DNA of 64,000 bases from Escherichia coli (GTDB lineage: Bacteria > Pseudomonadota > Gammaproteobacteria > Enterobacterales > Enterobacteriaceae), in NCBI RefSeq assembly GCF_003334355.1, contig NZ_QOWP01000020.1; one strand, 5' to 3'. This document shows positions 1 through 18,926 of this stretch, piece by piece (positions within the stretch are counted from its first letter, which is position 1; each line of letters starts with the position of its first letter). The notes beneath the pieces were generated by a model that did no database searches, was not told the DNA's origin, and was given only the letters and a program-made list of their open reading frames with translations. The position numbers were made by a program, and so were the translations under genes.

Positions 1-1
1 G

Positions 2-619
2 GAAAAACGAGTATTTTTAGTCATCCTGTTTACCTCTTTCTCAGGGAGTTTAGTCTCCAGGATTTCCGGGGCGGTTCAGAAGGAGGGGTATCGCCTACGC
101 TTTCATACCGGCAATAAGCAACGTATTTATTCCCTTTTGCATGACGGGAGCGCCGATCTCGCTGTTACCGCATCTATGCCTGATGACCGTCTGTACGGCT
201 ATGCACATCTACTGACTGAACGCATGCTCCTTGTTCATGCTCCCGCCATGTCAGAGATCATCGGATCAGAACCTGGTGCTGAAACGCTTGCCTCATTACC
301 GCTGATTGCTTATGACGAAGAGTTGCCACTGATTAGAGCGCTCTGGGCCTCCATGTTTCAGAGAGCCCCTGAGATGCAGGCTACATTCACCATTCCGGAT
401 TTACGTATTATCCGCGACTTGGTCTGTGACGGCCACGGGTGGACAGTGCTGCCGGATTATCACTGTGACAATGACCTGAAAAGTGGTCGCCTGATTTCAG
501 TGACACCTGCAGACCTCGCTCCGACTAATCATCTTTATCTGGTCTGGAACAAAAGGACGGCTAATAACAGCCGAACCGCCTATGTTCGGGATTACATTCT
601 TAAAACGTTTCCGCGTTGA
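2..619 (+). CDS. LysR-type transcriptional regulator, C-terminal effector-binding portion; 5' end lies upstream of the window
   Basis: Frame is open from the window edge to the stop at 617-619; the track ORF starts at an internal TTG (137). Assignment to LysR family is from overall sequence pattern, not a search. Confidence 0.5.
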   Translation, partial: EKRVFLVILFTSFSGSLVSRISGAVQKEGYRLRFHTGNKQRIYSLLHDGSADLAVTASMPDDRLYGYAHLLTERMLLVHAPAMSEIIGSEPGAETLASLPLIAYDEELPLIRALWASMFQRAPEMQATFTIPDLRIIRDLVCDGHGWTVLPDYHCDNDLKSGRLISVTPADLAPTNHLYLVWNKRTANNSRTAYVRDYILKTFPR

Positions 620-663
620 TGTTTGAAACGGATGATTGGCGATGCGTATCATAAGTTACGTAT

Positions 664-700
664 GTCCGCTTCTGGCACAAAGCAGACGCCCACTCTCACG
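664..700. repeat. Imperfect ~37-bp hairpin-containing repeat, copy A (GTCCGCT-TCTGGCACAA-AGCAGAC)
   Basis: About 28/38 identity to copy B at 4337-4373; 7-bp arms with a conserved TGGCACAAAGC core. Read directly. Confidence 0.5.
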
Positions 701-749
701 CGAATGCTTTGCCCTTGACTTGCCAACAACCGTATCGCTTGCTCCGCAA

Positions 750-2027
750 CTATGGTTTTTTATTAGAATCTTCGCCACTAAATAAATTATAATAAATTGA
801 TTTTATTAGATATCTGTCAGAATCTATATGGTCAGCACGAGTAGCATGCTCTAATGTTTCAAATGCTAGGGTTTGTGCGGCTTCAGCAAAAATTCCAGGC
901 CAACCCTTACTCAGCATCGACAGTCCTTTAAGTACCCTTATCTGAATTTCCCTCATACTGGCACCATCGCGCGCAACAGGTGAGAAAAAGTCTTCAAGTA
1001 GATCGTTATTCTGAAGTGGTGCAACATGTACAGAAGGATATTTCACTTCTATTTCATCAGATTTATTCTGCGCGTAAGCGGAAAGTATACGTACACCTCT
1101 GCCAATGACATCAATGGCGGTTCCAGGATCGTTCACTGCGGGGGAAAGGGCTCGGCAGGCTATTTCGGCCATGACGCTAAGACAAAATCGGGGGTCCTGA
1201 GCAAATGAACGTACATCCGAGACAATAATCGTCTCAAGTAAATCGGTGCTGATTGATGACTCCTGGCCCTGACTCAGGTACAAAACTGGCGTGGACGGAT
1301 GTATGAAACTGCCCGGCTGCGCCACGAGGTATACATGACGGGGATCATTGGTCAGCAGCTTGCTGAGTTTCACCATATCAACATATTCAACATAGCCAAT
1401 CTTTTTCGGATAAACTGCAACCGTTCCTTTCGGCTGTTCATTGTTCTCAAGCCATGGATATCCGCCGAGACAGGGATTTCTTGCTCTCGCAATAAATGTT
1501 TCGATGGCCGCCTGTTCTACTTTTGCCGTTGTCTCACCAACCCTCCCCAGAGAGGTCAAATGCTGTATCCAGCGAAGCAATGTGATGAGGATTAAGGCAA
1601 TGACAACCAGTGTTACAATGAATAAAATGACTCTCCCCCTTTCTCCATAAGCTCCCATATTGAGGGCAATAATCCCTACCAGACTGAAGAGAAAAGAACC
1701 GATGAAGGTGGCCAGTACATTTTGTGTGGTGACGTCTTCAACAACTAAACGAGTAGCTCTGGGAGTCACATTAGTAGTGGCTGAACCGTAGGCTGTGACC
1801 ATGATGCTCAGCGAAAATGTGGTCACTGCCAGCATACTCGATGCCAGTATGTTCAGAATGTTATCGACTGCTTCCGCACCAACCTTCACGGAAACCGACT
1901 CAGGTATCATTGATTTAAAAAGAATTGATAAAAGGGCCGTTATTATTGCGACAATTGCGAATAACGTTGCCCTGAACCATAGTTTTTTAAATGTCTGCTT
2001 CAGCATCCATTTCCAGCGTGAAATCAT
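750..2027 (-). CDS. DUF2254-like integral membrane protein (four N-terminal TM helices plus soluble C-terminal domain)
   Basis: ORF 750..2042; start moved to the second ATG (MISRWKW) which has a GAGGG RBS about 8 nt upstream. Four hydrophobic segments in the first ~150 aa. Gene is AT-rich compared with neighbours. Confidence 0.55.
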   Translation of the reverse strand: MISRWKWMLKQTFKKLWFRATLFAIVAIITALLSILFKSMIPESVSVKVGAEAVDNILNILASSMLAVTTFSLSIMVTAYGSATTNVTPRATRLVVEDVTTQNVLATFIGSFLFSLVGIIALNMGAYGERGRVILFIVTLVVIALILITLLRWIQHLTSLGRVGETTAKVEQAAIETFIARARNPCLGGYPWLENNEQPKGTVAVYPKKIGYVEYVDMVKLSKLLTNDPRHVYLVAQPGSFIHPSTPVLYLSQGQESSISTDLLETIIVSDVRSFAQDPRFCLSVMAEIACRALSPAVNDPGTAIDVIGRGVRILSAYAQNKSDEIEVKYPSVHVAPLQNNDLLEDFFSPVARDGASMREIQIRVLKGLSMLSKGWPGIFAEAAQTLAFETLEHATRADHIDSDRYLIKSIYYNLFSGEDSNKKP

Positions 2028-2052
2028 TCTGCATTCCCTCATATTGCAGCCG

Positions 2053-2081
2053 GGATAAATAAATGCCGCCTCTGTGGCGGC
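2053..2081 (-). terminator. Candidate intrinsic terminator/attenuator between the BCCT gene and the DUF2254 gene
   Basis: GCCGCC-N5-GGCGGC hairpin (2065-2081) followed on the minus strand by AUUUAUUUAU, starting about 10 nt after the BCCT stop. Confidence 0.4.
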
Positions 2082-2090
2082 ATGTTGCTG

Positions 2091-4094
2091 TTAACGAACC
2101 AGATGCAGGAAGTGCAGGTGTTTTTCGTACTGGTCCAGTATGTCATTAATCAGCTGTTCCTGATTCCAGCCCATTACATCATAATTTTGGCCGCCCTCTT
2201 TGAGATAGACTTCAGCGCGATAATATCGATGTTGTTCACTCTGCTGCTCATCATTATCCAGCGCAGCGAGCGCGAAGGTCGGTGAGTTATACCCGCGAAG
2301 CCTCACTTCATATATATAATTCAGCTCGTTGCCCAAATCGACTTCAAGGCGAATACGATCCTCGGCGGCGTCACTGATGTGGCTTATCGTTCCCTGCTTG
2401 TTAAGTTCCTCCTGAACCAGCGTCATGGCGGGTTGGATAATGTCGTCCATAAAACGTTTCACAAGAGAGCGCTTCGGCAAATACGCGATATTGCGTAACC
2501 TTCTCTGCCAGGGAATTGGGTTACGTGCAGCCGTAGGAGCAATAGTCGCCATGCTAAGGCTTTCACGCTTGGTCAAATCCCGACGCAGGGCTTTTAACAG
2601 TCCGTATATGGATATTAATAAGATAACTGAGAAGGGCAATGCACTCGCTATCGTTACGGTTTGCAACGCACTCAGCCCCCCTGCGATCAGCAGGGCAATA
2701 GCAACAACGCCCATGAGCGATGCCCAGAAAATTCGCTGCCAGACGGGCGTGTTTGCCACCCCACCTGATGCCAGAGTATCCACAACCATTGCCCCCGAAT
2801 CAGCAGACGTTACAAAGAAGACGATGACCATCGCCATTGCAATGAATGACAGCACGGAAGAGAACGGGAAATGCTCCAGGAAATTAAACAGGGCAAGCGC
2901 AACATCCTGCTGAACGGTATTGGCGAGGTCAGTGGCGCCCTGGTTCATGATGAGATAGATGGCGCTGTTTCCAAACACCGTCATCCACATGAGCGTAAAG
3001 CCGGCGGGAACAAACAACACGCCAGTCACGAACTCACGAATTGTCCTGCCGCGGGAAACGCGTGCAATGAACATACCTACAAACGGCGACCATGAAAGCC
3101 ACCATCCCCAGTATAATAATGTCCAGCCCCCCAGCCAGTTGCTCGACTTGGGTTCATACGCGTAAAGGTTGAACGTTTTACTCACCAGTTCCGACAGATA
3201 ACCACCCGTATTTTCCACAAATGACTTCAGCAGAAGCACAGTGGGACCCAGGCACAAGACCAGCGCCAGGAGCAACACCGCCAGGCCCAGATTAAGCTCA
3301 GACAGGATGCGTATTCCCTTGTCCAGGCCGGACACCACCGAAATCGTCGCTAACCCCGTGATGACCACGATCAAAATGACCTGTACCGTTTCATTGATGG
3401 GCACGCCGAAAAGATGGTTCAAACCGGCATTCACCTGCAATACACCGTAACCCAGCGATGTTGCAACGCCAAAGACAGTGCCTATCACGGCGAAGATATC
3501 AACCGCGTGGCCTATAGGCCCGTAAATGCGATCGCCGATAATGGGATAGAGCGCAGAACGCAGCGTTAAAGGCAGACCGTGACGGTAACTGAAAAAGGCC
3601 AGAATCAGCGCCACGATGGCATAAATTGCCCATGCGTGCAGACCCCAGTGGAAGAACGTCAGGCGCATGGCTTCCTTCGCTGCCGCAACGGTCTCTGGAG
3701 TGCCGACAGGTGGCGAAAGATAATGCATCACAGGTTCGGCAACGCCAAAGAACATCAGGCCGATCCCCATCCCTGCCGAAAAAAGCATCGCGAACCAGGA
3801 GTGGTAGCTGAAATCAGGCTGCGCATGGTCTGGGCCCAGCTTTATATCACCGTAACGTGAGAGTCCAAGGAACGTGACGCTCAGTAAAATCAGGGCCACA
3901 GCAAGTATGTAGAACCAGCTGGCATTCGTGAAGATTTGTTGCTGAAGTAGTTTAAAATTTTTGTCGGCGACATCCGGGAATACGGCGGCAAAGGCGACAA
4001 GAAGGAAAATTAGCAAAGCAGATGTAAAGAATACCGCTTTGTTAATCTGGCTTGTAGACTTCTTTGGGGTTGTATCATTTTCACTCATAATCAT
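2091..4094 (-). CDS. BCCT-family transporter (betaine/carnitine/choline type), BetT-like with long C-terminal cytoplasmic extension
   Basis: 667-aa ORF. Conserved BCCT motifs (GWTLLYWGWWLSWSPFVGMFIARVSRGRTIREF) and overall similarity to E. coli BetT recalled from memory; clearly not identical to betT, caiT or yeaV. Confidence 0.8.
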   Translation of the reverse strand: MIMSENDTTPKKSTSQINKAVFFTSALLIFLLVAFAAVFPDVADKNFKLLQQQIFTNASWFYILAVALILLSVTFLGLSRYGDIKLGPDHAQPDFSYHSWFAMLFSAGMGIGLMFFGVAEPVMHYLSPPVGTPETVAAAKEAMRLTFFHWGLHAWAIYAIVALILAFFSYRHGLPLTLRSALYPIIGDRIYGPIGHAVDIFAVIGTVFGVATSLGYGVLQVNAGLNHLFGVPINETVQVILIVVITGLATISVVSGLDKGIRILSELNLGLAVLLLALVLCLGPTVLLLKSFVENTGGYLSELVSKTFNLYAYEPKSSNWLGGWTLLYWGWWLSWSPFVGMFIARVSRGRTIREFVTGVLFVPAGFTLMWMTVFGNSAIYLIMNQGATDLANTVQQDVALALFNFLEHFPFSSVLSFIAMAMVIVFFVTSADSGAMVVDTLASGGVANTPVWQRIFWASLMGVVAIALLIAGGLSALQTVTIASALPFSVILLISIYGLLKALRRDLTKRESLSMATIAPTAARNPIPWQRRLRNIAYLPKRSLVKRFMDDIIQPAMTLVQEELNKQGTISHISDAAEDRIRLEVDLGNELNYIYEVRLRGYNSPTFALAALDNDEQQSEQHRYYRAEVYLKEGGQNYDVMGWNQEQLINDILDQYEKHLHFLHLVR

Positions 4095-4336
4095 TTATTC
4101 CATTAATTAAATCCGCACTGGATAGAAGGTACTACCTCTCACAGAGTAGCAAAGTTCAACTGGCTATGCGGGGTTAATCGGAATGCATGGTGGAATGAGT
4201 GCCGATACAAATCATCCTATATTCTAAGGAGTTTTAAGTTACTCAGCCTGCCAATTACTGGGGCATTTAATTTGTATGATCTGTATCAAAGCTGGGATAT
4301 AAGTTAAGTGAAGTATATTAGGCACGAATTACCAGC

Positions 4337-4373
4337 GTCTGCTCTTGGCACAAAGCGGACAACCACGCTAGCT
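4337..4373. repeat. Imperfect ~37-bp hairpin-containing repeat, copy B (GTCTGCT-CTTGGCACAA-AGCGGAC)
   Basis: Pairs with copy A at 664-700; the two copies bracket the BCCT-DUF2254 gene pair. Confidence 0.5.
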
Positions 4374-4428
4374 CTACCCTGTGCCACAAAATGTCAATTT
4401 GCATCTGAACTAATGCACTTTAATCTCG

Positions 4429-4851
4429 TCACTTCAATAAATACCGAACATCCCCCTGATAAAACGACAATATGCGCTGCATAACTTCGCTCTTCCGGCA
4501 CTCGCGACAGATTATGTTTAGGCGACTGTCGTAGCGACGTATTTCTCCGTCAGGTAATGACCAGATAAGGTCCGGATCAACCACAACCGGTTTCTTCAGC
4601 TTTGCCCTCGATAATTTTTTGCGGGCATTTTGCCAGTCTTTACGAGCCTGTTCAGACGGGAATAACCCGTAGCCAGAATTGTATACATCGCCACTGGCAA
4701 CCAGCTCTCTGGCCAGAACGCTCATCAGATATCTTGTTGCCCCAGTTTTAGCTTCCAGTTGTCGTAACGTCTCGCGCCCACTCTGGCGTACGAGTTCAAG
4801 AACCTGCCCTTTAATTTTTTCCCGCTCTTCTTGTGTAAAAACTTTTGCCAC
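4429..4851 (-). CDS. Hypothetical prophage protein, 140 aa, basic, possible winged-helix segment
   Basis: ORF directly downstream of the ydaU-like gene; no Walker A motif, so not the DnaC-like ydaV expected at this position in K-12 Rac. No family recognised. Confidence 0.45.
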   Translation of the reverse strand: MAKVFTQEEREKIKGQVLELVRQSGRETLRQLEAKTGATRYLMSVLARELVASGDVYNSGYGLFPSEQARKDWQNARKKLSRAKLKKPVVVDPDLIWSLPDGEIRRYDSRLNIICRECRKSEVMQRILSFYQGDVRYLLK

Positions 4852-4891
4852 AAGCCCTCCTGAAAATTACCTCATGACCAGAAATTAACAC

Positions 4892-5968
4892 TTACCCCCT
4901 GAAGCCCGGCGGAATTTCGTTATCCGGTTCAGAAATATGATTCACACAACGCTGGTTGTTCGTGCCGCTTACCGGGAGCAACCAGGGGTTCTCAAAATTC
5001 CGGTCCGGTCCAAAAAACGTCGTCGCTCGCTGAACAAATTCCGTTCCCGTTTTCCCGGTAGCCGCCAAGTATCTTGCGTAACGCCTCACGCCATCCAGCA
5101 TGGCCTCTGGTGGCACCCCCTCGCGTAATCTGGCCTTCCAGGCACTGAAAGCGGATTTCTTCGGGTTTGCCCCAGCACGCAACGGGTACTCCCGCCAGAC
5201 CTGTTCGAACACATCCGGATAATCCACTCGTCCCACAGACTGCCCGGTGTTTTCCGGGACTACCCGATCGGCTTCCCGCTGAATGGCGGAATCGGCTTCA
5301 GGCTGCTGCAGTTGGTGTGATTGCTCCGCCCTTGCGGTCATCACCTGCTGCACAGCGCCCGAATCGGCTTTCAGCGCATACGCTGAATCGGCTTCCGGTG
5401 TCGTGCCTGCTGGCTGACCAAGATTGACGGTCTGAACATCCCCTGCCTGGTTCGTGGCGTTTTTTACGCCATGGACCATAGTGTTTTGATCTTCTTGATC
5501 TGTATCTTTATCTGTATCTTTATCTGTCGTGACTCGTCGTGACATGTGCGTGACATTTCGTGACGCGCCGTGACAATCGCCATTTTGTTCCCGCTTTCTT
5601 TCCCTCTCTCGCTGCGCCCTCTTGCGCTCTGCAGGAGATTTTGCGGTTTGCGAAATATTGCCGTTGTCCTCTTTAAGCACCTGGCGTTTTTCCCATCCAG
5701 TGATTAAATCACCATCAAGTACCCGCCCCTGCATCGTCTGCAAAATTGAATCAATTACCTCTTCTGTCACGTCGAGCGCACTTGCCAAATCTTCTGTCGT
5801 GACATCAATGTGACCTCGCGTGACATTTCGTGACGCGCTCACCAGGAGGTGGATATACACTGCCATCACTGTTGCAATTGGCTGTCCTGACACCCTGGCA
5901 ATTGTTCGCCACTTAGGGTCATTTGGCATGTCATGCCATAATCTGAGCCAGGCGTTAGCCATACTCAC
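4892..5968 (-). CDS. ydaU: YdaU-like prophage replication protein (DUF1376-like N-terminus, DnaT-like C-terminus, repeat-rich acidic linker)
   Basis: 358-aa ORF next to ydaT as in K-12 Rac; contains internal DNA direct repeats. Longer than the 285 aa I recall for K-12 YdaU, so treated as ydaU-like. Confidence 0.55.
   Translation of the reverse strand: MSMANAWLRLWHDMPNDPKWRTIARVSGQPIATVMAVYIHLLVSASRNVTRGHIDVTTEDLASALDVTEEVIDSILQTMQGRVLDGDLITGWEKRQVLKEDNGNISQTAKSPAERKRAQRERERKREQNGDCHGASRNVTHMSRRVTTDKDTDKDTDQEDQNTMVHGVKNATNQAGDVQTVNLGQPAGTTPEADSAYALKADSGAVQQVMTARAEQSHQLQQPEADSAIQREADRVVPENTGQSVGRVDYPDVFEQVWREYPLRAGANPKKSAFSAWKARLREGVPPEAMLDGVRRYARYLAATGKTGTEFVQRATTFFGPDRNFENPWLLPVSGTNNQRCVNHISEPDNEIPPGFRG
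5526..5576. repeat. Iteron-like cluster 1: five CGTGAC direct repeats at 10-11 bp spacing, preceded by an AT-rich TATCTT/TATCTG repeat tract (5489-5527)
   Basis: CGTGAC at 5528, 5538, 5549, 5559, 5569; read directly. Confidence 0.6.
5797..5836. repeat. Iteron-like cluster 2: four (C/T)GTGAC direct repeats at 10-11 bp spacing, plus an inverted GTCACG at 5767-5772
   Basis: Repeats at 5798, 5809, 5819, 5829; the 19-mer GCGTGACATTTCGTGACGCG is shared with cluster 1. Confidence 0.6.
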
Positions 5969-6033
5969 CTCTTTTGATACCGAATCTTTTTACTCACAAA
6001 TTGCCGGAAGTGATCCGGTATGAATATTGCGCG

Positions 6034-6459
6034 TCAATGCACAGCCACAATATTTCCTGCAGGGCCACCACGATTCATCTGGTTGAAACCAGCGATCGCC
6101 ACTGCGACAAAATCATCAGCGTCTCTCACCAGTCGTTCCCGCGTCTCCACTAGTTCCCGAAAATAGGCTGAGCTATGGCTGCGCATTCGGGCCACCAGCA
6201 GAGGTGGCATTGCTTTTTCGATAGCTGGTAACAACGCCTGAATTTTTTCAACTGCATCAGGGGTGTCTTTCTCTACCCAGCGGAAAATTTTCTGGGTATT
6301 GCGAGCCAGGGCTTCCGGATGGCTGTCGTCATACAGTTCTGGGAACGTCATACCCAGTTCAAAATAAGCCCTGGTTATTTCAGCTGCCGGAACTTTTTCA
6401 CCGTCCGGATGCGCCCAGGCATTCATCGCCATGCGGATGTGTTCATGCTTGATTTTCAT
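6034..6459 (-). CDS. ydaT: Rac prophage YdaT-like protein (toxic when derepressed)
   Basis: 141-aa ORF at the K-12 ydaT position, overlapping the upstream ydaS by 17 bp. Confidence 0.65.
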   Translation of the reverse strand: MKIKHEHIRMAMNAWAHPDGEKVPAAEITRAYFELGMTFPELYDDSHPEALARNTQKIFRWVEKDTPDAVEKIQALLPAIEKAMPPLLVARMRSHSSAYFRELVETRERLVRDADDFVAVAIAGFNQMNRGGPAGNIVAVH

Positions 6460-6724
6460 GAATCAAGCTCCTAGAAAGTGGTTGTGTTAACATTTTGGTA
6501 TCTTCCAGCTCGGGCCAAATATTCATCCAATCAAAAGGCCTTAGTTGCTGACGTGTAACTTCACCATTACTGGCTCGCTCAATAAGGACACATAACGATG
6601 CCCCTAACACTTGACCTTTACTCAATGCCTTTCTTAGATAACCGATGCTGGTACCACACTCGCATGCAAACATACGCTGTTCATCTGACGAAAGAGAATT
6701 GAGAAATATTCTTAATTCTTCCAT
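6443..6724 (-). CDS. ydaS: Rac prophage YdaS-like HTH protein
   Basis: 93-aa ORF divergent from racR, first gene of the ydaS-ydaT pair. Confidence 0.6.
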   Translation of the reverse strand: MEELRIFLNSLSSDEQRMFACECGTSIGYLRKALSKGQVLGASLCVLIERASNGEVTRQQLRPFDWMNIWPELEDTKMLTQPLSRSLIHENQA

Positions 6725-6752
6725 AGCTACTCCTTAGTAAACACAGCAAAGA

Positions 6753-6828
6753 ATACCCATAGGTAAACAAAAGTCAATACCCACAGGTTGTTTACCTTGC
6801 AGTAATCGCATCTATTATTTACCTATGG
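6753..6828. promoter_or_regulatory. Divergent racR / ydaS-ydaT control region with repeated ATACCCATAGGTA-type operator half-sites
   Basis: ATACCCATAGGTAAAC (6753-6768), TACCCACAGGTTGTTTACC (6778-6796) and its inverted copy TATTTACCTATGG (6816-6828, overlapping the racR start). Confidence 0.5.
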
Positions 6829-7244
6829 ACAAATATGAATTTAGACGACAGCAACTCATCAAAATTCGTGATGAGAAATGCGATGGTAAAGCGGTTAACG
6901 TGGCCAGAAAGATCGGGCGCGAGCCTTCTTATGTATCAAGAATGTTGTACCCAGAGGGGAAAAAGGGAAAAAAACGGATCGCTGATGATATGGTGGAGAT
7001 TATCGAAGAGTCCTTTGGGTTACCCCGGGGATGGATGGATGGTATCGTTTCATCATCAACGAACACAGCCTCCAGTTATGAAACAAGGGTTCTAACGCCA
7101 CGACAACGTATTTTTTTAGATCTCTTAGACGAACTGCCAGAAAGTGAAGCGGATAACTTATTAAAAACTCTTGAAGAGAAAAAACAGTATTACAATATGA
7201 TCTACGAAGAAATCCGTAAAAAGAAAGCACAAAACGCATCATAG
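6825..7244 (+). CDS. racR: RacR-like prophage repressor (XRE/HTH-like)
   Basis: 139-aa ORF divergent from ydaS-ydaT, at the K-12 racR position; no in-frame upstream start before the stop at 6738. Confidence 0.6.
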   Translation: MDKYEFRRQQLIKIRDEKCDGKAVNVARKIGREPSYVSRMLYPEGKKGKKRIADDMVEIIEESFGLPRGWMDGIVSSSTNTASSYETRVLTPRQRIFLDLLDELPESEADNLLKTLEEKKQYYNMIYEEIRKKKAQNAS

Positions 7245-7285
7245 CTCACCAAACAACTAGTCACCAGTTAAGACACCGTAAAAAG

Positions 7286-7324
7286 TTACCCATGGGTATT
7301 TACTTTTTAAATACCTATGGGTAT
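7286..7324. promoter_or_regulatory. Operator-like palindromes downstream of racR and upstream of ydaG-ydaF
   Basis: Perfect 12-bp palindrome TACCCATGGGTA (7287-7298) and 14-bp near-palindrome ATACCTATGGGTAT (7311-7324), same motif family as the racR upstream sites. Confidence 0.5.
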
Positions 7325-7498
7325 CCTTCTTTTCATACCAACCCACCCCGCCCCACAGAATGCAGGGCAATACTTCGAGTTACCAGGCAGTGGTCAGGGG
7401 TTAAGTAGCCAGCCCGAGGCGTAAGAACATGACGGCGGGATTCAAATTTTGCAGTGCAGCAGTTAGTTCCGCCACCCGGCGTTAAGGGGAGAGATAAG

Positions 7499-7633
7499 AT
7501 GGTGCATTACGAAGTAGTTCAGTATTTGATGGATTGTTGCGGTATCACTTACAACCAGGCTGTGCAGGCTTTACGCAGCAACGACTGGGATCTCTGGCAG
7601 GCAGAAGTCGCTATACGTAGCAACAAGATGTGA
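7499..7633 (+). CDS. ydaG: Rac prophage small protein YdaG (44 aa)
   Basis: ATG preceded by a GGGGAG RBS; below the track's 60-aa cutoff, translated by hand; position matches K-12 order racR-ydaG-ydaF-sieB. Confidence 0.55.
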   Translation: MVHYEVVQYLMDCCGITYNQAVQALRSNDWDLWQAEVAIRSNKM

Positions 7634-7643
7634 GATTCGCAAA

Positions 7644-7799
7644 ATGCAAAAAATCGACCTCGGCAACAACGAATCCCTGGTGTGCGGCGTGTTCCCCAAC
7701 CAGGATGGAACGTTCACTGCCATGACGTATACCAAAAGCAAAACATTTAAAACCGAAACTGGTGCGCGCCGATGGTTGGAGAAGCACACAGTAAGCTAA
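7644..7799 (+). CDS. ydaF: Rac prophage small protein YdaF (51 aa)
   Basis: Hand-translated (MQKIDLGNNESLVCGVFPNQDGTFTAMTYTKSKTFKTETGARRWLEKHTVS); below the track cutoff. Confidence 0.55.
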   Translation: MQKIDLGNNESLVCGVFPNQDGTFTAMTYTKSKTFKTETGARRWLEKHTVS

Positions 7800-8284
7800 C
7801 GATTAAAACGTCTACTCCTGCTGTTCCAGAATAACTTCATAAAATGGGAGTATTTTTCGGTGACGAGATAATAAGAACAGTTTGCGCTATCACTCTGATG
7901 TTGAATGATGCCCTTCCGTTCTAATTTTTTCATAACCGGGTTACGGCAAGGAGAAGTGATAATAAGATTTCCTGTTTTAAGGAAATCTTTAAATACAGCG
8001 ATTTCTTTCTCAGATAAACGAAGCAATACTCGTTGCTCTGGTAGTAATGAATAATGCTTTTGAATATGTGCTCGCAATCTTGAGAAGGAAATGGCGACCA
8101 CGAAAGAAAAGGCAAAAACGATAATCTGAAAGAGCCAAGGTATTTCAGTATAAGCATTGAATGCGACAGTAAACTCTTTCGGTATCAGCCAGAGAGTGAG
8201 ACCAAAAATGATAATCGTATACATAAGTCTTTCGAGTGGCTCGTTAGCAAAAAGTTTCAACAATGGAGTAAATACATCCAACAT
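7796..8284 (-). CDS. sieB: Superinfection exclusion protein SieB
   Basis: 162-aa product starting MLDVFTPLL at an internal ATG of the 203-aa track ORF; matches recalled SieB length and sequence. Confidence 0.8.
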   Translation of the reverse strand: MLDVFTPLLKLFANEPLERLMYTIIIFGLTLWLIPKEFTVAFNAYTEIPWLFQIIVFAFSFVVAISFSRLRAHIQKHYSLLPEQRVLLRLSEKEIAVFKDFLKTGNLIITSPCRNPVMKKLERKGIIQHQSDSANCSYYLVTEKYSHFMKLFWNSRSRRFNR

Positions 8285-8725
8285 ATCAATAACTCTCAAC
8301 TGTAAGGGTATTGAAATGTTAACACAAGCTCTCGCTGTAGGGGTATAGCCGAGACCACCGAAGCCCGGAGGTGGTGAAATAAAACCGGGCACAACACGAA
8401 GGCGCATTTCCGATATCCATAAAGAGTCGGTCTTGTCTGTTAAATTTAAATGGTGGGAGTGCGCCTCCGGTTGTAAATAACGACATTGCTGTGTGTAGTC
8501 CTGGCGGCATCAGTTTTTTTCTTGAAGTTCGGCTGATGTCCGCCCTTTTTAAAGTGAATTTTGTGATGCGGTGAATGCGGCTAAGCGCACGTGGCACAGT
8601 TAAAAGTCATGTTAGTCCTTATTGGTTTGGGTGGGAAAGCCGACTGTAATTGTTAACTGGTTGCAGTCACCTGGAGGCACCAGACACCGCATCAACAAAG
8701 TTCATTTGTAAAAATGGAGATAATT

Positions 8726-8947
8726 ATGATTGCACATCACTTCGGAACTGATGAAATACCACGTCAGTGTGTGACTCCTGGCGATTATGTTCTTCATGAA
8801 GGCCGGACATATATTGCCTCGGCAAACAATATTAAAAAGCGAAAACTATATATTCGTAACCTGACCACAAAAACATTCATTACTGACCGCATGATTAAAG
8901 TCTTCCTCGGTCGTGATGGTTTACCTGTAAAGGCGGAGTCATGGTGA
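8726..8947 (+). CDS. kilR: KilR, FtsZ-targeting cell division inhibitor of Rac
   Basis: 73-aa product [12 protein letters not shown]... from an internal ATG of the track ORF. Confidence 0.85.
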
Positions 8948-9117
8948 TGACTAAGAAAATAAAATGTGCTTACCACCTTTGCAAAAAAGACGTTGAAGAA
9001 AGCAAAGCTATTGAAAGAATGCTTCACTTCATGCACGGGATTTTATCAAAAGACGAACCGAGAAAATATTGCAGTGAAGCTTGTGCCGAAAAAGACCAGA
9101 TGGCACATGAACTTTAA
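8947..9117 (+). CDS. ydaE: Rac prophage small Cys-rich protein YdaE (56 aa)
   Basis: Hand-translated [14 protein letters not shown]...; start overlaps the kilR stop (TGATG); below the track cutoff. Confidence 0.7.
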   Translation: MTKKIKCAYHLCKKDVEESKAIERMLHFMHGILSKDEPRKYCSEACAEKDQMAHEL

Positions 9118-9191
9118 TTAATTGACTATTCGAAACTGAATTTATGCCAGAAATGGCAGGTATTCGCTCAACCTTAATTAAGGAGAAAAAC

Positions 9192-9467
9192 ATGATTACC
9201 AATTATGAAGCCACTGTTGTAACTACCGATGACATTGTTCACGAGGTGAATCTGGAAGGAAAGCGCATTGGCTACGTAATTAAAACAGAAAATAAAGAAA
9301 CCCCATTCACTGTGGTTGATATCGATGGTCCATCAGGCAACGTAAAAACACTTGATGAAGGTGTCAAAAAAATGTGCCTGGTGCATATCGGAAAGAATCT
9401 GCCCGCAGAAAAAAAAGCCGAATTTCTGGCAACTCTAATTGCAATGAAATTAAAAGGTGAAATCTGA
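9192..9467 (+). CDS. racC: RacC
   Basis: 91-aa product MITNYEATVV... with an AAGGAG RBS; internal start of the track ORF. Confidence 0.8.
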   Translation: MITNYEATVVTTDDIVHEVNLEGKRIGYVIKTENKETPFTVVDIDGPSGNVKTLDEGVKKMCLVHIGKNLPAEKKAEFLATLIAMKLKGEI

Positions 9468-9568
9468 AAGAAATAGCCTGCGTATGGCGCAGGCTATGAA
9501 CAGTGTGTATCCGGCAAGATCATTCACTGAACAAAACGAATTTTAATCTGAGTTGAGGTTAAAAAACA

Positions 9569-12169
9569 ATGAGCACAAAACCACTCTTCCTGTTACGGAA
9601 AGCGAAAAAATCATCCGGTGAACCTGACGTCGTCCTGTGGGCAAGCAACGATTTTGAATCGACCTGTGCCACTCTGGACTACCTGATCGTTAAGTCAGGT
9701 AAAAAACTGAGCAGCTATTTTAAAGCTGTTGCCACGAATTTTCCTGTCGTTAATGACCTGCCCGCTGAAGGTGAGATCGATTTTACCTGGAGTGAACGCT
9801 ATCAACTCAGCAAAGACTCCATGACATGGGAACTAAAACCGGGAGCAGCACCAGACAACGCTCACTATCAAGGCAATACCAACGTCAACGGCGAAGACAT
9901 GACTGAGATTGAGGAGAATATGCTACTCCCAATTTCTGGCCAGGAACTGCCCATTCGTTGGCTTGCTCAACACGGCAGCGAAAAACCGGTAACGCACGTT
10001 TCACGCGACGGACTCCAGGCATTACACATTGCTCTGGCTGAAGAACTACCGGCTGTTACTGCCCTGGCTGTTTCCCACAAAACCAGCCTGCTCGACCCGC
10101 TGGAAATTCGCGAACTCCACAAACTGGTTCGTGACACTGACAAAGTTTTCCCTAATCCTGGTAATTCAAACCTGGGACTGATAACTGCTTTTTTCGAAGC
10201 ATACCTGAACGCTGACTACACCGATCGAGGACTGCTGACAAAAGAGTGGATGAAGGGTAATCGTGTTTCACACATCACTCGCACGGCTTCCGGTGCTAAT
10301 GCTGGCGGCGGAAACCTCACCGATCGCGGCGAAGGTTTCGTACACGATCTGACGTCACTGGCGCGCGACGTAGCCACTGGCGTACTGGCCCGTTCAATGG
10401 ATCTGGACATCTATAACCTTCATCCGGCACACGCTAAACGCATTGAGGAAATTATCGCTGAAAATAAACCGCCCTTTTCTGTTTTCCGCGACAAATTCAT
10501 CACCATGCCTGGCGGGCTGGATTATTCCCGCGCCATCGTGGTTGCGTCCGTAAAAGAAGCACCAATTGGGATCGAGGTCATCCCCGCGCACGTCACTGAA
10601 TATCTGAACAAAGTACTGACTGAAACCGATCATGCCAACCCTGATCCGGAAATCGTGGATATTGCCTGCGGTCGCTCCTCTGCCCCGATGCCGCAGCGAG
10701 TAACAGAAGAAGGAAAACAGGATGATGAAGAAAAACCGCAACCATCTGGAACAACGGCAGTTGAACAGGGAGAGGCTGAAACAATGGAACCGGACGCAAC
10801 TGAACATCATCAGGACACGCAGCCGCTGGATGCTCAGTCACAGGTAAATTCTGTTGATGCGAAATATCAGGAACTGCGGGCAGAACTCCATGAAGCCCGG
10901 AAAAACATTCCATCAAAAAATCCTGTCGATGACGATAAATTGCTTGCTGCATCACGTGGTGAATTTGTTGACGGAATTAGCGACCCGAACGATCCGAAAT
11001 GGGTAAAGGGGATCCAGACTCGCGATTGTGTGTACCAGAACCAGCCAGAAACGGAAAAAACCAGCCCAGATATGAATCAACCTGAGCCAGTAGTGCAACA
11101 GGAACCGGAAATAGCCTGCAATGCCTGCGGCCAGACTGGCGGGGATAACTGCCCTGACTGTGGTGCGGTGATGGGCGACGCAACATACCAGGAAACATTC
11201 GATGAAGAGAGTCAGGTTGAAGCTAAGGAAAATGATCCGGAGGAAATGGAAGGCGCTGAACATCCGCACAATGAGAATGCTGGCAGCGATCCGCATCGCG
11301 ATTGCAGTGATGAAACTGGCGAAGTCGCAGATCCCGTAATCGTAGAAGACATAGAGCCAGGTATTTATTACGGAATTTCGAATGAGAATTACCACGCGGG
11401 TCCCGGTATCAGTAAGTCTCAGCTCGATGACATTGCTGATACTCCGGCACTATATTTGTGGCGTAAAAATGCCCCCGTGGACACCACAAAGACAAAAACG
11501 CTCGATTTAGGAACTGCTTTCCACTGCCGGGTACTTGAACCGGAAGAATTCAGTAACCGCTTTATCGTAGCACCTGAATTTAACCGCCGTACAAACGCCG
11601 GAAAAGAAGAAGAGAAAGCGTTTCTGATGGAATGCGCAAGCACAGGAAAAACGGTTATCACTGCGGAAGAAGGCCGGGAAATTGAACTCATGTATCAAAG
11701 CGTTATGGCTTTGCCGCTGGGGCAATGGCTTGTTGAAAGCGCCGGACACGCTGAATCATCAATTTACTGGGAAGATCCTGAAACAGGAATTTTGTGTCGG
11801 TGCCGTCCGGACAAAATTATCCCTGAATTTCACTGGATCATGGACGTGAAAACTACGGCGGATATTCAACGATTCAAAACCGCTTATTACGACTACCGCT
11901 ATCACGTTCAGGATGCATTCTACAGTGACGGTTATGAAGCACAGTTTGGAGTGCAGCCAACTTTCGTTTTTCTGGTTGCCAGCACAACTATTGAATGCGG
12001 ACGTTATCCGGTTGAAATTTTCATGATGGGCGAAGAAGCAAAACTGGCAGGTCAACAGGAATATCACCGCAATCTGCGAACCCTGTCTGACTGCCTGAAT
12101 ACCGATGAATGGCCAGCTATTAAGACATTATCACTGCCCCGCTGGGCTAAGGAATATGCAAATGACTAA
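9569..12169 (+). CDS. recE: Exodeoxyribonuclease VIII (RecE)
   Basis: 866-aa ORF, same length as K-12 RecE; C-terminal region overlaps the recT start by 8 bp. Confidence 0.9.
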
Positions 12170-12971
12170 GCAACCACCAATCGCAAAAGCCGATCTGCAA
12201 AAAACTCAGGGAAACCGTGCACCAGCAGCAGTTAAAAATAGCGACGTGATTAGTTTTATTAACCAGCCATCAATGAAAGAGCAACTGGCAGCAGCTCTTC
12301 CACGCCATATGACGGCTGAACGTATGATCCGTATCGCCACCACAGAAATTCGTAAAGTTCCGGCGTTAGGAAACTGTGACACTATGAGTTTTGTCAGTGC
12401 GATCGTACAGTGTTCACAGCTCGGACTTGAGCCAGGTAGCGCCCTCGGTCATGCATATTTACTGCCTTTTGGTAATAAAAACGAAAAGAGCGGTAAAAAG
12501 AACGTTCAGCTAATCATTGGCTATCGCGGCATGATTGATCTGGCTCGCCGTTCTGGTCAAATCGCCAGCCTGTCAGCCCGTGTTGTCCGTGAAGGTGACG
12601 AGTTTAGCTTCGAATTTGGCCTTGATGAAAAGTTAATACACCGCCCGGGAGAAAACGAAGATGCCCCGGTTACCCACGTCTATGCTGTCGCAAGACTGAA
12701 AGACGGAGGTACTCAGTTTGAAGTTATGACGCGCAAACAGATTGAGCTGGTGCGCAGCCTGAGTAAAGCTGGTAATAACGGGCCGTGGGTAACTCACTGG
12801 GAAGAAATGGCAAAGAAAACGGCTATTCGTCGCCTGTTCAAATATCTGCCCGTATCAATTGAGATCCAGCGTGCAGTATCAATGGATGAAAAGGAACCAC
12901 TGACAATCGATCCTGCAGATTCCTCTGTATTAACCGGGGAATACAGTGTAATCGATAATTCAGAGGAATAA
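12162..12971 (+). CDS. recT: RecT single-strand annealing protein
   Basis: 269-aa product from [13 protein letters not shown]; start overlaps the recE stop. Confidence 0.9.
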
Positions 12972-13027
12972 TTCAGCCTGGCGGTGTAATGCACCGCCAA
13001 CTTGAAATATTTTTTATGAGAAAAATT

Positions 13028-13222
13028 ATGAGATATGACAATGTTAAACCATGTCCATTTTGTGGTTGTCCATCAGTAACGGTGAAAGCCATTTCAGGAT
13101 ATTACCGAGCGAAGTGTAACGGATGCGAATCCCGAACCGGTTATGGTGGAAGTGAAAAAGAAGCACTCGAAAGATGGAATAAACGAACCACTGGAAATAA
13201 TAATGGAGGTGTTCATGTATAA
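13028..13222 (+). CDS. ralR: RalR (Lar), restriction alleviation protein and type I TA toxin
   Basis: 64-aa product MRYDNVKPCPFCGC... from an internal ATG of the track ORF. Confidence 0.8.
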   Translation: MRYDNVKPCPFCGCPSVTVKAISGYYRAKCNGCESRTGYGGSEKEALERWNKRTTGNNNGGVHV

Positions 13223-13424
13223 AATTACCGCCACTATTGAAAAGGAAGGTGGCACTCCTACTAACTGGACAAGATATTCAAAATCTAAACTAACGAAATC
13301 AGAATGCGAAAAAATGCTCTCAGGTAAAAAAGAAGCAGGCGTTTCCAGAGAGCAGAAAGTAAAACTGATAAATTTTAATTGCGAGAAACTTCAGTCCTCG
13401 AGAATTGCATTGTATTCAAATTAA
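13215..13424 (+). CDS. ydaC: YdaC
   Basis: 69-aa product MYKITATIEKEGG... with a GGAGG RBS; overlaps the ralR stop. Confidence 0.75.
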   Translation: MYKITATIEKEGGTPTNWTRYSKSKLTKSECEKMLSGKKEAGVSREQKVKLINFNCEKLQSSRIALYSN

Positions 13425-13502
13425 AACTTCATAGCTGATTATTAATAATCAACATCGGGCGTCAATTTCAGTCTAACATTGGCGCCTGCCAGAGGTGATG
13501 CG

Positions 13503-13718
13503 ATGGCACAAGTAATCTTTAATGAAGAGTGGATGGTTGAATACGGCCTGATGCTTCGCACTGGTCTGGGGGCCAGACAAATTGAAGCATACCGCCAGAA
13601 CTGTTGGGTGGAGGGCTTCCACTTCAAACGAGTATCTCCTTTAGGTAAGCCAGACAGCAAACGAGGGATTATCTGGTACAACTATCCAAAGATAAATCAG
13701 TTTATCAAAGACTCATGA
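13503..13718 (+). CDS. xisR: Rac excisionase XisR (YdaQ)
   Basis: 71-aa product [10 protein letters not shown]... immediately upstream of intR. Confidence 0.7.
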
Positions 13719-13719
13719 T

Positions 13720-14955
13720 ATGTCTAAATTACCAACAGGTGTCGAGATTAGAGGTAGATACATTCGCATCTGGTTCATGTTTCGAGGAAAACGATGTCGG
13801 GAAACATTAAAAGGCTGGGAGATTACAAACAGTAATATTAAAAAGGCCGGAAATTTAAGAGCGCTGATAGTTCATGAAATAAACTCCGGTGAATTTGAGT
13901 ATTTAAGACGTTTTCCCCAGTCCAGCACTGGGGCAAAAATGGTGACAACGAGAGTCATAAAAACGTTCGGAGAGCTTTGTGATATCTGGACAAAAATTAA
14001 AGAGACAGAGTTAACAACAAACACAATGAAGAAAACGAAATCACAATTAAAAACACTCAGAATAATAATTTGTGAAAGTACCCCGATATCACATATTCGT
14101 TATAGCGATATCTTAAACTACCGGAATGAACTGCTGCATGGAGAAACGCTTTACCTGGATAATCCAAGATCCAACAAAAAAGGAAGAACCGTGCGCACAG
14201 TTGATAACTATATCGCCCTGCTCTGTTCGCTGTTGCGTTTTGCGTATCAGTCGGGATTTATATCAACCAAACCATTTGAAGGAGTAAAAAAATTACAGCG
14301 AAACAGAATAAAGCCTGATCCGTTATCTAAAACAGAATTCAATGCATTAATGGAAAGTGAAAAAGGACAGAGCCAGAACTTGTGGAAATTTGCCGTTTAC
14401 TCAGGACTTCGTCACGGGGAACTGGCAGCTCTGGCGTGGGAGGATGTGGATCTCGAAAAGGGAATAGTGAATGTCAGAAGAAACCTGACGATACTTGATA
14501 TGTTCGGTCCCCCAAAAACAAATGCCGGGATCCGAACAGTAACACTACTGCAGCCTGCTCTTGAAGCACTGAAGGAGCAATACAAACTGACCGGGCATCA
14601 TCGCAAAAGCGAAATCACCTTTTATCATCGGGAGTACGGCAGAACCGAAAAGCAAAAACTGCATTTTGTTTTCATGCCCAGGGTGTGTAACGGAAAACAA
14701 AAACCTTATTACTCGGTAAGCAGTTTGGGGGCAAGGTGGAATGCAGCAGTAAAACGTGCTGGTATTCGCCGCCGTAATCCGTACCATACGCGGCATACTT
14801 TTGCCTGCTGGCTGTTGACGGCAGGAGCGAACCCGGCATTTATAGCCAGCCAAATGGGGCATGAAACTGCGCAGATGGTGTATGAAATTTACGGTATGTG
14901 GATTGATGACATGAACGACGAACAGATAGCCATGTTGAATGCGCGGTTATCGTAG
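13720..14955 (+). CDS. intR: Rac prophage tyrosine integrase IntR
   Basis: 411-aa ORF with the tyrosine recombinase C-terminal region (RHTFA...); adjacent to ttcA as in K-12. Ends with TAG. Confidence 0.9.
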   Translation: MSKLPTGVEIRGRYIRIWFMFRGKRCRETLKGWEITNSNIKKAGNLRALIVHEINSGEFEYLRRFPQSSTGAKMVTTRVIKTFGELCDIWTKIKETELTTNTMKKTKSQLKTLRIIICESTPISHIRYSDILNYRNELLHGETLYLDNPRSNKKGRTVRTVDNYIALLCSLLRFAYQSGFISTKPFEGVKKLQRNRIKPDPLSKTEFNALMESEKGQSQNLWKFAVYSGLRHGELAALAWEDVDLEKGIVNVRRNLTILDMFGPPKTNAGIRTVTLLQPALEALKEQYKLTGHHRKSEITFYHREYGRTEKQKLHFVFMPRVCNGKQKPYYSVSSLGARWNAAVKRAGIRRRNPYHTRHTFACWLLTAGANPAFIASQMGHETAQMVYEIYGMWIDDMNDEQIAMLNARLS

Positions 14956-15006
14956 TTGCAAAGTTTGCCCCCAATTTGCCCCATTTAGTACCAGAGAACT
15001 GAAATA

Positions 15007-15942
15007 ATGCAAGAAAATCAACAAATTACAAAGAAAGAACAATACAACCTGAACAAATTACAAAAACGTCTGCGTCGTAACGTGGGCGAAGCCATTGCTG
15101 ACTTCAATATGATTGAAGAAGGCGATCGCATCATGGTTTGCCTCTCCGGGGGTAAAGACAGCTATACCATGCTGGAGATTCTGCGCAATTTGCAGCAAAG
15201 CGCGCCAATCAATTTTTCGCTGGTGGCTGTTAACCTCGATCAAAAGCAACCGGGCTTCCCGGAACACGTTCTGCCCGAGTATCTTGAAAAGCTGGGCGTT
15301 GAGTACAAGATTGTTGAAGAGAATACTTACGGTATCGTGAAAGAGAAGATTCCAGAGGGCAAAACCACTTGCTCACTGTGTTCTCGCCTTCGTCGCGGTA
15401 TCCTTTATCGTACCGCAACGGAACTGGGGGCGACGAAGATCGCGTTGGGTCACCATCGTGACGATATCCTGCAAACGTTGTTCTTAAATATGTTCTACGG
15501 CGGTAAGATGAAAGGTATGCCTCCGAAACTGATGAGCGATGATGGCAAACATATCGTTATTCGTCCGCTGGCCTACTGCCGCGAGAAAGATATTCAGCGA
15601 TTTGCCGATGCAAAAGCGTTCCCGATTATTCCGTGCAACCTGTGCGGTTCACAGCCTAACCTGCAACGTCAGGTGATTGCTGACATGTTGCGTGACTGGG
15701 ATAAACGTTATCCAGGGCGTATCGAGACGATGTTCAGCGCGATGCAGAATGTGGTGCCGTCGCATCTGTGCGATACCAACCTGTTCGATTTCAAAGGCAT
15801 CACCCACGGTTCTGAAGTGGTTAACGGGGGTGATCTGGCGTTTGATCGCGAAGAGATCCCACTACAACCGGCGGGCTGGCAGCCAGAAGAAGATGAAAAT
15901 CAGTTGGATGAGTTACGGCTGAATGTGGTTGAAGTGAAATAA
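15007..15942 (+). CDS. ttcA: tRNA 2-thiocytidine(32) synthetase TtcA
   Basis: 311 aa; SGGKDS PP-loop motif and paired CxxC motifs. Confidence 0.9.
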
Positions 15943-15950
15943 CCAGGATA

Positions 15951-16024
15951 GCGCCCGATGCGCAAGCGTATCGGGCTACTCTTATGGAGGCCGGATAAGA
16001 CGCGGCCAGCGTCGCATCCGGCAA
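15951..16024. repeat. REP (repetitive extragenic palindrome) elements between ttcA and dbpA
   Basis: GCGCCCGATGCGCAAGCGTATCGGGC and GGCCGGATAAGACGCGGCCAGCGTCGCATCCGGC palindromic units. Confidence 0.6.
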
Positions 16025-16070
16025 TCCCGAATAAGATGTTTACTCTTGCACCCGGCAATTCAACATTTCA

Positions 16071-17444: not shown

Positions 17445-17473
17445 AATCTATTCTCGTGGTCATCGACGCAAAG

Positions 17474-17647
17474 TTAGCAGGCGCGTATCCTCGCAGATCT
17501 ACGCTCACGATGCGACAATTTAATCGGTTCTTCATCGGGTGGTGGGTCAGGCATGGGTTGCGGGCGAGGGATCGGATCGGGCACTGGAACAGGATCGCCA
17601 GGAATCGGTTCAGGGACAGGAATTTGCAAATAAATAAGTGTCGTCAT
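17474..17647 (-). CDS. Small proline-rich ORF (57 aa) between dbpA and fnrS
   Basis: Hand-translated MTTLIYLQIPVPEPIPGDPVPVPDPIPRPQPMPDPPPDEEPIK...; below the track cutoff; expression not established. Confidence 0.3.
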   Translation of the reverse strand: MTTLIYLQIPVPEPIPGDPVPVPDPIPRPQPMPDPPPDEEPIKLSHRERRSARIRAC

Positions 17648-17704
17648 ATTTCCCTCTGGTCATTGGGTGGACTCTTAAAGGGTAGACGCTGATAAATAAC
17701 AGGC

Positions 17705-17826
17705 AAAAAAAAGCCGACTCATCAAAGTCGGCGTCGTACGAATCAATTGTGCTATGCAGTAATTCAAAAAAGGAAGTAAGACAATATGGAGCGCAACGCC
17801 CATCGCTTGACGTTGCATTCACCTGC
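17705..17826 (-). ncRNA. fnrS: FnrS small RNA (FNR-activated)
   Basis: Reverse complement reads GCAGGTGAATGCAACGTCAAGCGATGGGCG...GCCGACTTTGATGAGTCGGCTTTTTTTT, matching recalled FnrS including its terminator. Confidence 0.85.
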
Positions 17827-17861
17827 AAGAGAGATATTGCCCTGAATGGGTAGAGAGTTTA

Positions 17862-17875
17862 TTGACTTCGCTCAA
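17862..17875 (-). promoter_or_regulatory. FNR binding site of the fnrS promoter (TTGAG-N4-GTCAA)
   Basis: Centred about 42 bp upstream of the fnrS 5' end; matches TTGAT-N4-ATCAA consensus at 8 of 10 positions. Confidence 0.6.
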
Positions 17876-17921
17876 ACTTTGCGGCGTTTTTGTATACAGA
17901 CAGCCGGAAAAATTGCTTTTG

Positions 17922-18926
<1,005 letters not shown>

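Follow-up and report, generated by a model that had tools for sequence, protein, structure and literature searches.

The betU-DUF2254 block and its ends

We analysed a window of 64,000 nucleotides from Escherichia coli (contig NZ_QOWP01000020.1 of assembly GCF_003334355.1), which carries near its start a block of two genes within a Rac-like prophage, one encoding a transporter of the BCCT family and the other a membrane protein of family DUF2254. In our account, to which we give a probability of roughly 80%, the block is a betU-DUF2254 osmoprotection unit, a discrete 3.67-kb cassette in a cargo hot spot of the Rac-like prophage, which entered by recombination within a hexamer. An earlier note on this DNA had placed a DUF2254-like reading frame at 750-2027 and a BCCT reading frame at 2091-4094 in the same direction. 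The profile matches to PF10011, TIGR00842 and NF007399 and the common minus strand of both frames agree with this. The features of the block and its right flank are:

664-687, plus strand: left A-type 24-bp site, GTCCGCTTC-TGGCAC-AAAGCAGAC; variable at positions 1-9, depending on the left neighbour; positions 10-24 are cassette sequence
673-4345, minus strand: betU-DUF2254 cassette proper, from the left central TGGCAC to just before the right central TGGCAC, about 3.67 kb
750-2027, minus strand: gene for the DUF2254 membrane protein (PF10011), 425 residues from the RefSeq start; longest open reading frame 750-2042
2063-2083, minus strand: hairpin resembling an intrinsic terminator, located after the betU stop codon and before the DUF2254 start codon; 8-bp stem with six GC pairs, tail TTATTTAT
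2091-4088, minus strand: betU, gene for a BCCT-family glycine betaine/proline betaine transporter, 665 residues from the RefSeq start; longest open reading frame 2091-4094, 667 residues
4095-4336, minus strand: non-coding DNA upstream of betU, presumed promoter or 5′ untranslated region, travelling with betU
4337-4360, plus strand: right A-type 24-bp site, GTCTGCTCT-TGGCAC-AAAGCGGAC; positions 1-9 are cassette sequence, and phage backbone starts at about position 10
4429-4851, minus strand: DUF977 (ydaW-like) gene, prophage backbone flank of the hot spot

The block is bracketed by a repeat (664-696 and 4337-4369) that is identical at 26 of 33 positions (79%). The earlier note had recognised this repeat but given its length as about 37 bp, where we find 33 nt. 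Its core is a 24-bp palindrome that occurs exactly twice in the 64 kb, and none of 100 shuffled sequences gave a match. Each of the two sites has a 9-6-9 layout, with inverted arms of 9 bp (GTCCGCTYY) around the asymmetric hexamer TGGCAC.

The betU unit was found at 99.8-99.9% identity in an integrative and conjugative element (ICE) of strain TA8571 (locus L006), where its neighbours are trbL and trbJ, and on three plasmids (loci L003, L139 and L140), namely pCRST047, a Shigella sonnei IncF plasmid and the IncY plasmid pPO125. In these copies, the homology stops at window positions 662/664 and 4360/4361. Including the Rac-like prophage, five left neighbours were observed: a LysR cassette, ICE DNA, a reverse-transcriptase cassette, a cassette with a small tyrosine recombinase, and flxA. 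Among the five contexts, the left site varies at positions 1-9 (GTCCGCTTC, GTCCGCTCC, GCCCGCTTT and GGCTGCTCC) and is invariable at positions 10-24. The right site keeps its positions 1-15 unchanged, and the base at position 16 depends on the context to the right. The non-coding DNA upstream of betU is included in the unit that is common to all copies flanked by A sites. The cassette is thus bounded in the manner of the P2 Z region, by sites of the form GTCCGCT-N10-AGCGGAC at which homology breaks (664-687 and 4337-4360; five contexts). It does not combine one A-type end with one end of the second site class, termed B, since both of its ends are A-type and no B-like sequence lies past the left site.

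A prophage without the block, in strain RUT3575, has an intact empty site, GTCCGCTCTTGGCACAAAGCGGAC, that is GTCCGCTCT-TGGCAC-AAAGCGGAC, directly downstream of the DUF977 gene and followed by sequence identical to window 4361-4430. In about 2400 genomes that lack the block, the DUF977 gene is followed by the stretch 4337/4338-4430. Entry would most likely have occurred by reciprocal recombination inside the hexamer, between GTCTGCTCT-TGGCAC-AAAGCAGAC on a donor or circular molecule and GTCCGCTCT-TGGCAC-AAAGCGGAC on the phage. Such an exchange would leave the two hybrid sites seen in the window, and a circularised cassette would have matched arms.

The transporter and the DUF2254 protein

The transporter matches the BCCT profile TIGR00842 with 542.6 bits over residues 59-506 (cut-off 407.55) and the BetT subfamily profile NF007399 with 752 bits (cut-off 695). 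Its translation contains the tryptophan-rich signature of transmembrane helix 8, GGWTLLYWGWWLSWSPFVGMFIARVSRGRTIREF, a motif defined from BetP and BetT, as well as the glycine-rich segment AGMGIGLMFFG. All these traits are shared with BetT of E. coli and BetP of Corynebacterium glutamicum. The window gene differs from E. coli betT in that it is not linked to betIBA, and BetU is reported to have betaine or proline betaine rather than choline as substrate (PMC3139670). When compared to the allele of sequence type 131 (ST131; group B2), 652 of 665 residues are identical (98%), and we infer from PMC3139670 that the ST131 allele is the published BetU. With BetU of uropathogenic E. coli, the protein shares the BCCT family, the length of 665-667 residues with a long C-terminal extension, the 98% amino acid identity to the B2 chromosomal allele and the lack of an adjoining bet regulon. 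However, the window copy is a second allele, about 94% identical in nucleotides, and lies in a Rac-like prophage instead of beside fecABCDE.

The earlier note had considered the gene pair to be without an assigned function, which does not hold. Holt et al. 2011 described SPAP0105 and SPAP0106 (betU) as cargo of Tn6062 on IncHI1 plasmids of type PST6; the cloned pair enabled growth of S. Typhi in 0.8 M NaCl, and BetU is given there as an osmoprotectant importer for glycine betaine and proline betaine rather than choline (PMC3139670). The 3′ part of the Tn6062 cloning primer IS1056-03, TTATTAGAATCTTCGCCACT, matches window 770-789 exactly. The other primer has no match in the window at up to three mismatches, which is consistent with the approximately 89% identity of the Salmonella allele. 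Tn6062 of S. Typhi pSTY7 and S. Paratyphi A pAKU_1 thus carries the same pair in the same order, but it is described as a composite transposon, whereas the window copy has no flanking insertion sequences (IS) and is bordered by the 24-bp sites, the LysR cassette and phage DNA. As judged from the identity of its sequence and the published transport data, BetU would act as a secondary transporter, taking up glycine betaine and proline betaine at high external osmolality, and this import would restore turgor and growth. The block is therefore known mobile cargo with a documented phenotype, and as such an ordinary finding. As osmoprotection by BetU has been documented, and likewise its spread on IncHI1 and other plasmids, the gene pair itself matters little; what interest remains lies in the recombination sites and in the function of DUF2254.

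The DUF2254 protein matches PF10011 (E = 1.9e-92, residues 15-369) and is 97% identical to the ST131 allele. The family comprises 5868 representative sequences at E values up to 0.001. An AlphaFold2 model built from a 60-sequence alignment reached a mean pLDDT of 93.6 and predicts four long N-terminal helices (residues 16-36, 51-86, 99-123 and 131-157), followed by a mixed beta/helical domain. In this domain, the invariant residues R273, D278, D300 and T303 fall in the QDPRF and SPAVNDPGTA motifs. According to the model, DUF2254 is a membrane protein with four predicted transmembrane helices and a large cytoplasmic domain. When the model was searched against AFDB50 with Foldseek, only DUF2254 proteins were retrieved (TM-score 0.9 or more). 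As the family is large and its fold confidently predicted but without a solved relative, the betU-linked copy offers a tractable entry point to its function.

The chromosomes of Leclercia (73% identity) and Pluralibacter (68%) likewise have adjacent BCCT and DUF2254 genes, with surroundings that are unrelated. In Leclercia adecarboxylata (L013, 3466-7284), the pair lies directly downstream of a tRNA-like sequence and has no A or B sites; tRNA genes are typical insertion points of islands. Seven neighbourhoods of DUF2254 homologues showed no consistent partner besides the BCCT gene in close relatives.

In composition, the pair is uneven. The earlier note had regarded the block as deviating from the core genes. 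Taking window 15000-64000 as core reference (GC 0.508), this applies to the AT-richer DUF2254 gene (GC 0.447, 0.418 at third codon positions), but not to betU (0.511 and 0.59, respectively), so that only the DUF2254 gene and the intergenic DNA deviate. Purifying selection acts on both genes: compared with the ST131 allele, the ratio of nonsynonymous to synonymous substitution rates (dN/dS) is 0.027 for betU and 0.149 for DUF2254. Between the Rac-borne and the fec-side allele (window 750-4088 against L002 8051-11388), dS was 0.325 for betU and 0.091 for DUF2254, a 3.5-fold difference, which suggests that the gene pair is itself a mosaic. The hairpin at 2063-2083 has a folding energy of -20.4 kcal/mol (z = -2.15); being GC-rich and followed by a T-rich tail, it may mean that betU and DUF2254 are not strictly co-transcribed. 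Upstream of betU, a sigma-70 scan of the minus strand gave no convincing promoter and no strong consensus, and a search of window 1-8000 against Rfam at E values up to 1 returned a spurious long non-coding RNA as sole match, with no riboswitch or known RNA upstream of betU.

Several points weigh against our account of the block. No empty site joining the LysR cassette to DUF977 was found among 5426 complete E. coli genomes with a chimeric query at a coverage of at least 80%. Regarding the transporter, NCBIfam assigns it to the BetT (choline) subfamily, and its score against the glycine-betaine equivalog is 593 at a cut-off of 650. Both the substrate range and the equation of the B2 allele with BetU go back to a secondary citation (PMC3139670), and the osmotolerance experiment used both genes together, so that the share of DUF2254 is not separable. 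Three further points argue against an obligate partnership of the two proteins: the DUF2254 homologues of Pantoea, Serratia, Alloalcanivorax, Paraburkholderia and Cellvibrio have no BCCT neighbour, IS911 truncates DUF2254 while betU is kept in about 30% of the E. coli carriers, and the terminator-like hairpin separates the two genes. DUF2254 is thus unlikely to be a required subunit of the transporter; it is probably an accessory that can be dispensed with or a stress protein acting on its own, and this is the weakest part of our account.

The NCBIfam scores would also fit a second choline importer, a BetT paralogue feeding the oxidation of choline to betaine, and betT is a frequent gene name in RefSeq and PLSDB. 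We consider this improbable, as NF007399, named 'choline BCCT transporter BetT', is a subfamily-level model and not an equivalog, and neither betI, betB nor betA adjoins betU in any of the nine contexts examined. Some members of the BCCT family import dimethylsulfoniopropionate (DMSP), and acuR, the regulator of acrylate utilisation, abuts the DUF2254 gene in ST131. Import of DMSP or a related sulfonium or acrylate precursor is nevertheless extremely unlikely, since acuR lies outside the conserved unit, where homology begins at window 668, and is missing from every other context examined. We also weighed whether selection for phage defence or superinfection exclusion maintains the pair as prophage cargo, with DUF2254 serving, for instance, in exclusion at the membrane. 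Other occupants of the same hot spot are PD-T7-1 (in RUT3575), a reverse-transcriptase gene (in a Shigella plasmid array) and fun(Z) (in P2). However, the DUF2254 protein, which was scanned alone, matches no PADLOC family, and most copies of the pair lie outside prophages, namely at the fec locus, on Klebsiella plasmids and in the Leclercia and Pluralibacter chromosomes. Given also the demonstrated osmotolerance phenotype (PMC3139670), a role in defence is very unlikely.

The site family and the exchange of cassettes

To define the site family, viral contigs were scanned with exact patterns, and the family figures given here cover the matches listed. Sites were present in at least 120 viral loci, and 75 of those listed hold at least two, compared to about four extra sites expected by chance. 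Two classes can be distinguished, A with the core TGGCAC and B with the core GAGCGA. All sites of one locus share the same orientation, and adjoining cassettes are joined by composites of an A site, 18 nt and a B site. In these composites (L040, L055, L119, L123 and others), the 18 nt have the consensus ..CTGAGCTGAAG, and the whole is often flanked by AAC...GTT. Because the A and B cores are partly complementary, the 66-bp composite could also fold as one long attC-like hairpin.

Breakpoints of homology were 19-fold enriched within 15 nt of the site centres (11.5% compared to 0.6%), and a breakpoint lay within 30 nt of 142 of the 219 sites. Junctions were then mapped in pairs of sites sharing only one flank; these pairs are phylogenetically non-independent and the figures descriptive. 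For the 337 A-site pairs that share only the right flank, identity was 0.39/0.41 at positions 8-9 and 0.95/0.93 at positions 16-17. The reverse was seen for the 191 B-site pairs that share only the left flank (0.99/0.86 at positions 8-9, 0.36/0.34 at positions 16-17). This flank-wise segregation indicates that crossovers within the invariant arms are rare and that the junctions lie in the central hexamer.

P2-like prophages also have sites of this family, flanked by gene G (tail-fibre assembly) on one side and gene FI (sheath) on the other. In the 'proviral Z-region' records AJ512682 (P2-EC53) and AJ512683 (P2-EC58), the annotated 'left inverted repeat' ends exactly at the A site. The 'right inverted repeat' begins exactly at the B site in AJ512683, while in AJ512682 only a TCGCTC core is recognisable. 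P2 itself has fun(Z) between a degenerate B site and an A site. The P2-like Z/fun cassettes and the window hence share the site sequences, and the P2-like cassettes have A and B at the annotated repeat boundaries with variable lysogenic-conversion genes between them. They differ in that the hot spot of the window, downstream of a DUF977 gene, belongs to a lambdoid (Rac-like) prophage, and in that the betU cassette has two A sites and no B site. At window 4379-4387, about 18 nt past the A site, we observed CTGTGCCA(C/T), the complement of the site core TGGCACAG, which occurs at the same place in many loci. On phage backbones, it forms a second, conserved inverted repeat, which falls in the 113 bp annotated as 'left inverted repeat' in the P2 records.

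We tentatively propose, at somewhat below even odds, that the repeats belong to a cassette-exchange system of lambdoid and P2-like prophages, ICEs, plasmids and chromosomal islands of Enterobacterales, with heterospecific 9-6-9 A and B sites, a crossover confined to the hexamer and both metabolic cargo (such as betU) and defence cargo (PD-T7-1, reverse transcriptases and fun(Z)). A candidate enzyme is a tyrosine recombinase of about 200 residues, which is itself carried in cassettes of this kind. If this is true, the breadth of the system, the two site classes, the mapping of the junctions and the candidate enzyme would be new. Site-specific recombination as such is said to have been proposed for the repeats of the P2 Z region by Nilsson, Karlsson and Haggard-Ljungquist in 2004. 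Our literature searches for the site sequence returned nothing relevant. The block shows that inverted-repeat sites of the P2 type also delimit cargo in Rac-like prophages, ICEs and plasmids, and it bears on how prophage hot spots exchange their contents, a question left open by Rousset et al. 2022, who do not mention the repeats.

The tyrosine recombinase of 200-202 residues was found in 848 of the 5426 E. coli genomes, with different genes on either side each time. In CFT073 (L141, 4877-9168), it lies inside a B...A cassette of a chromosomal island. The only recombinase matches are weak ones of a 202-residue protein located in other arrays. In other Rac/Qin-like prophages (L005, 614-6024; L070; L096), the hot spot downstream of the DUF977 gene is occupied by PD-T7-1 (E = 7e-157), the 202-residue tyrosine recombinase (L005, 2202-2810, minus strand) and two genes of unknown kind, with B and A sites delimiting them as cassettes.

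A different explanation would be that the palindromes are conserved functional hairpins, acting at transcript ends or in protein binding, and that the cassettes are swapped by homologous or RecET-type recombination via short homology and not by a dedicated recombinase. No recombinase gene is consistently linked to the sites, which counts against our proposal and in favour of this explanation. The small tyrosine recombinase is present in only five of the 120 loci listed, and its copy in SCU-482 (L142) has no sites within 7 kb. RecET is encoded by the prophage, and homologous exchange was also invoked for the P2 hot spots by Rousset et al. 2022. On the other hand, positions 16-17 go with the right flank in 93-95% of the A-site pairs, and positions 8-9 go with the left one in 86-99% of the B-site pairs. 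Moreover, the 9-6-9 layout is that of tyrosine-recombinase core sites, and each array keeps a single orientation. As RNA, the palindromes are weak and lack a U tract. We therefore regard exchange by homology as possible but doubtful.

Other candidates were rejected. A terminator or other RNA element was discarded because folding of the palindromes on either strand was no better than that of shuffled sequences (z between -0.2 and -0.9). The hairpin ends had suggested IS200/IS605 or another HUH-type element, but the right site is part of the phage backbone, and the two junctions are hybrids of a reciprocal kind. The sites are not known to resemble XerCD/dif-like sites, sigma-54 promoters or the boxB of lambdoid nut sites. 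With integrons and attC sites, the system shares arrays of unrelated cassettes, separators that are imperfect palindromes in one orientation and A-18 nt-B junctions of about 66 bp that are often flanked by AAC...GTT. In contrast to integrons, there is no integron integrase nearby and there are no RYYYAAC/GTTRRRY cores, and the site-bounded cassettes hold genes in both orientations with their own regulatory DNA.

Distribution and prophage context

We searched the 5426 complete E. coli genomes with window 700-4200, and 72,556 PLSDB plasmids for the gene pair. Matches were obtained in 1966 genomes (36%), of which 1378 reached a coverage of at least 80%. The allele at 99% identity or more accounts for 408 records, whereas an allele of 90-95% identity beside fecABCDE, the main location of the pair, accounts for 1554. 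In ST131, the fec-side order is acuR, DUF2254, betU and IS600, and the left end of the pair (L002, 7147-11543) carries a diverged palindrome, GTTTGCTTTTGGCACAAAGCATAC. In BL21, IS911 cuts DUF2254 and betU is intact. The pair was also detected on 1533 plasmids, 1266 of them from Klebsiella (about 93% identity); the Salmonella copies are about 89% identical. On hundreds of Klebsiella pneumoniae plasmids, the pair lies at the same record coordinates (about 9842-13327), which suggests a fixed position in one successful backbone.

The LysR/DUF2254 junction of the window occurs in 303 genomes and the betU/DUF977 junction in 319. With its multiple loci, its plasmid copies and about 303-319 Rac-like carriers, the pair is neither core nor specific to Rac. 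The earlier note was thus right that the block is accessory, absent from K-12 Rac and horizontally acquired, and most E. coli do not have it at this locus as a conserved core operon: the block is mobile, yet known, cargo. The suspected association with Rac is not borne out, considering the much larger number of records next to fecABCDE.

A position at a truncated end of the prophage, as had been supposed, was not confirmed. Window 79-18500 is colinear at 99.9% with strain ECCWS199, where ttcA and intR are followed by recET, racR-like, ydaS, ydaT, the replisome organiser and DUF977. Then comes the cargo, first betU-DUF2254, then LysR, GGCT and MFS, and then DUF1971. Beyond the cargo lie DUF1367/1364/1133, a holin gene, rrrD, trkG, ynaK and a capsid gene. 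This colinearity and the late genes beyond the cargo place the block inside the prophage, between the replication and late-regulation modules. The lambdoid cargo hot spot that holds the betU cassette lies between the replication module, with its DUF977 gene, and the hok/nin-Q side.

To the left of the cassette, the window contains two further features:

1-78, no strand assigned: terminal 78 nt of an IS3-family insertion sequence, interrupting the LysR gene
79-619, plus strand: 3′ 541 nt of a LysR-family regulator gene, with NCBIfam LysR-type matches; intact as an 882-nt gene in the RefSeq annotation of L001

The block abuts the 3′ end of this LysR gene, as the earlier note had stated, with the stop codon at 619. 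The gene is part of the neighbouring MFS-GGCT-LysR cassette rather than of the betU cassette; a B site at 9520 and an A site at 12586 delimit the former in L001. Positions 1-78 match both ends of elements annotated as 'IS3 family transposase' in strain SLK172 (97.5%), and homology to the intact LysR gene of ECCWS199 begins only at window 79. The IS3-family element is inserted at nucleotide 342 of the 882-nt gene, so that the regulator of the neighbouring cassette is inactivated in this strain. Its end is located 580 bp away from the betU cassette, within the neighbouring cassette.

In the near-identical prophage of L001, the annotation treats intR (25642-26877; equivalent to window about 13720-14955) as a pseudogene with an internal stop, and the Rac-like element is therefore probably not excisable. 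The title of a 2004 article by Ly et al. in J Bacteriol reportedly contrasts the distributions of the accessory osmoregulatory genes trkG and betU. The prophage of L001 (1417-2874) has both trkG and betU.

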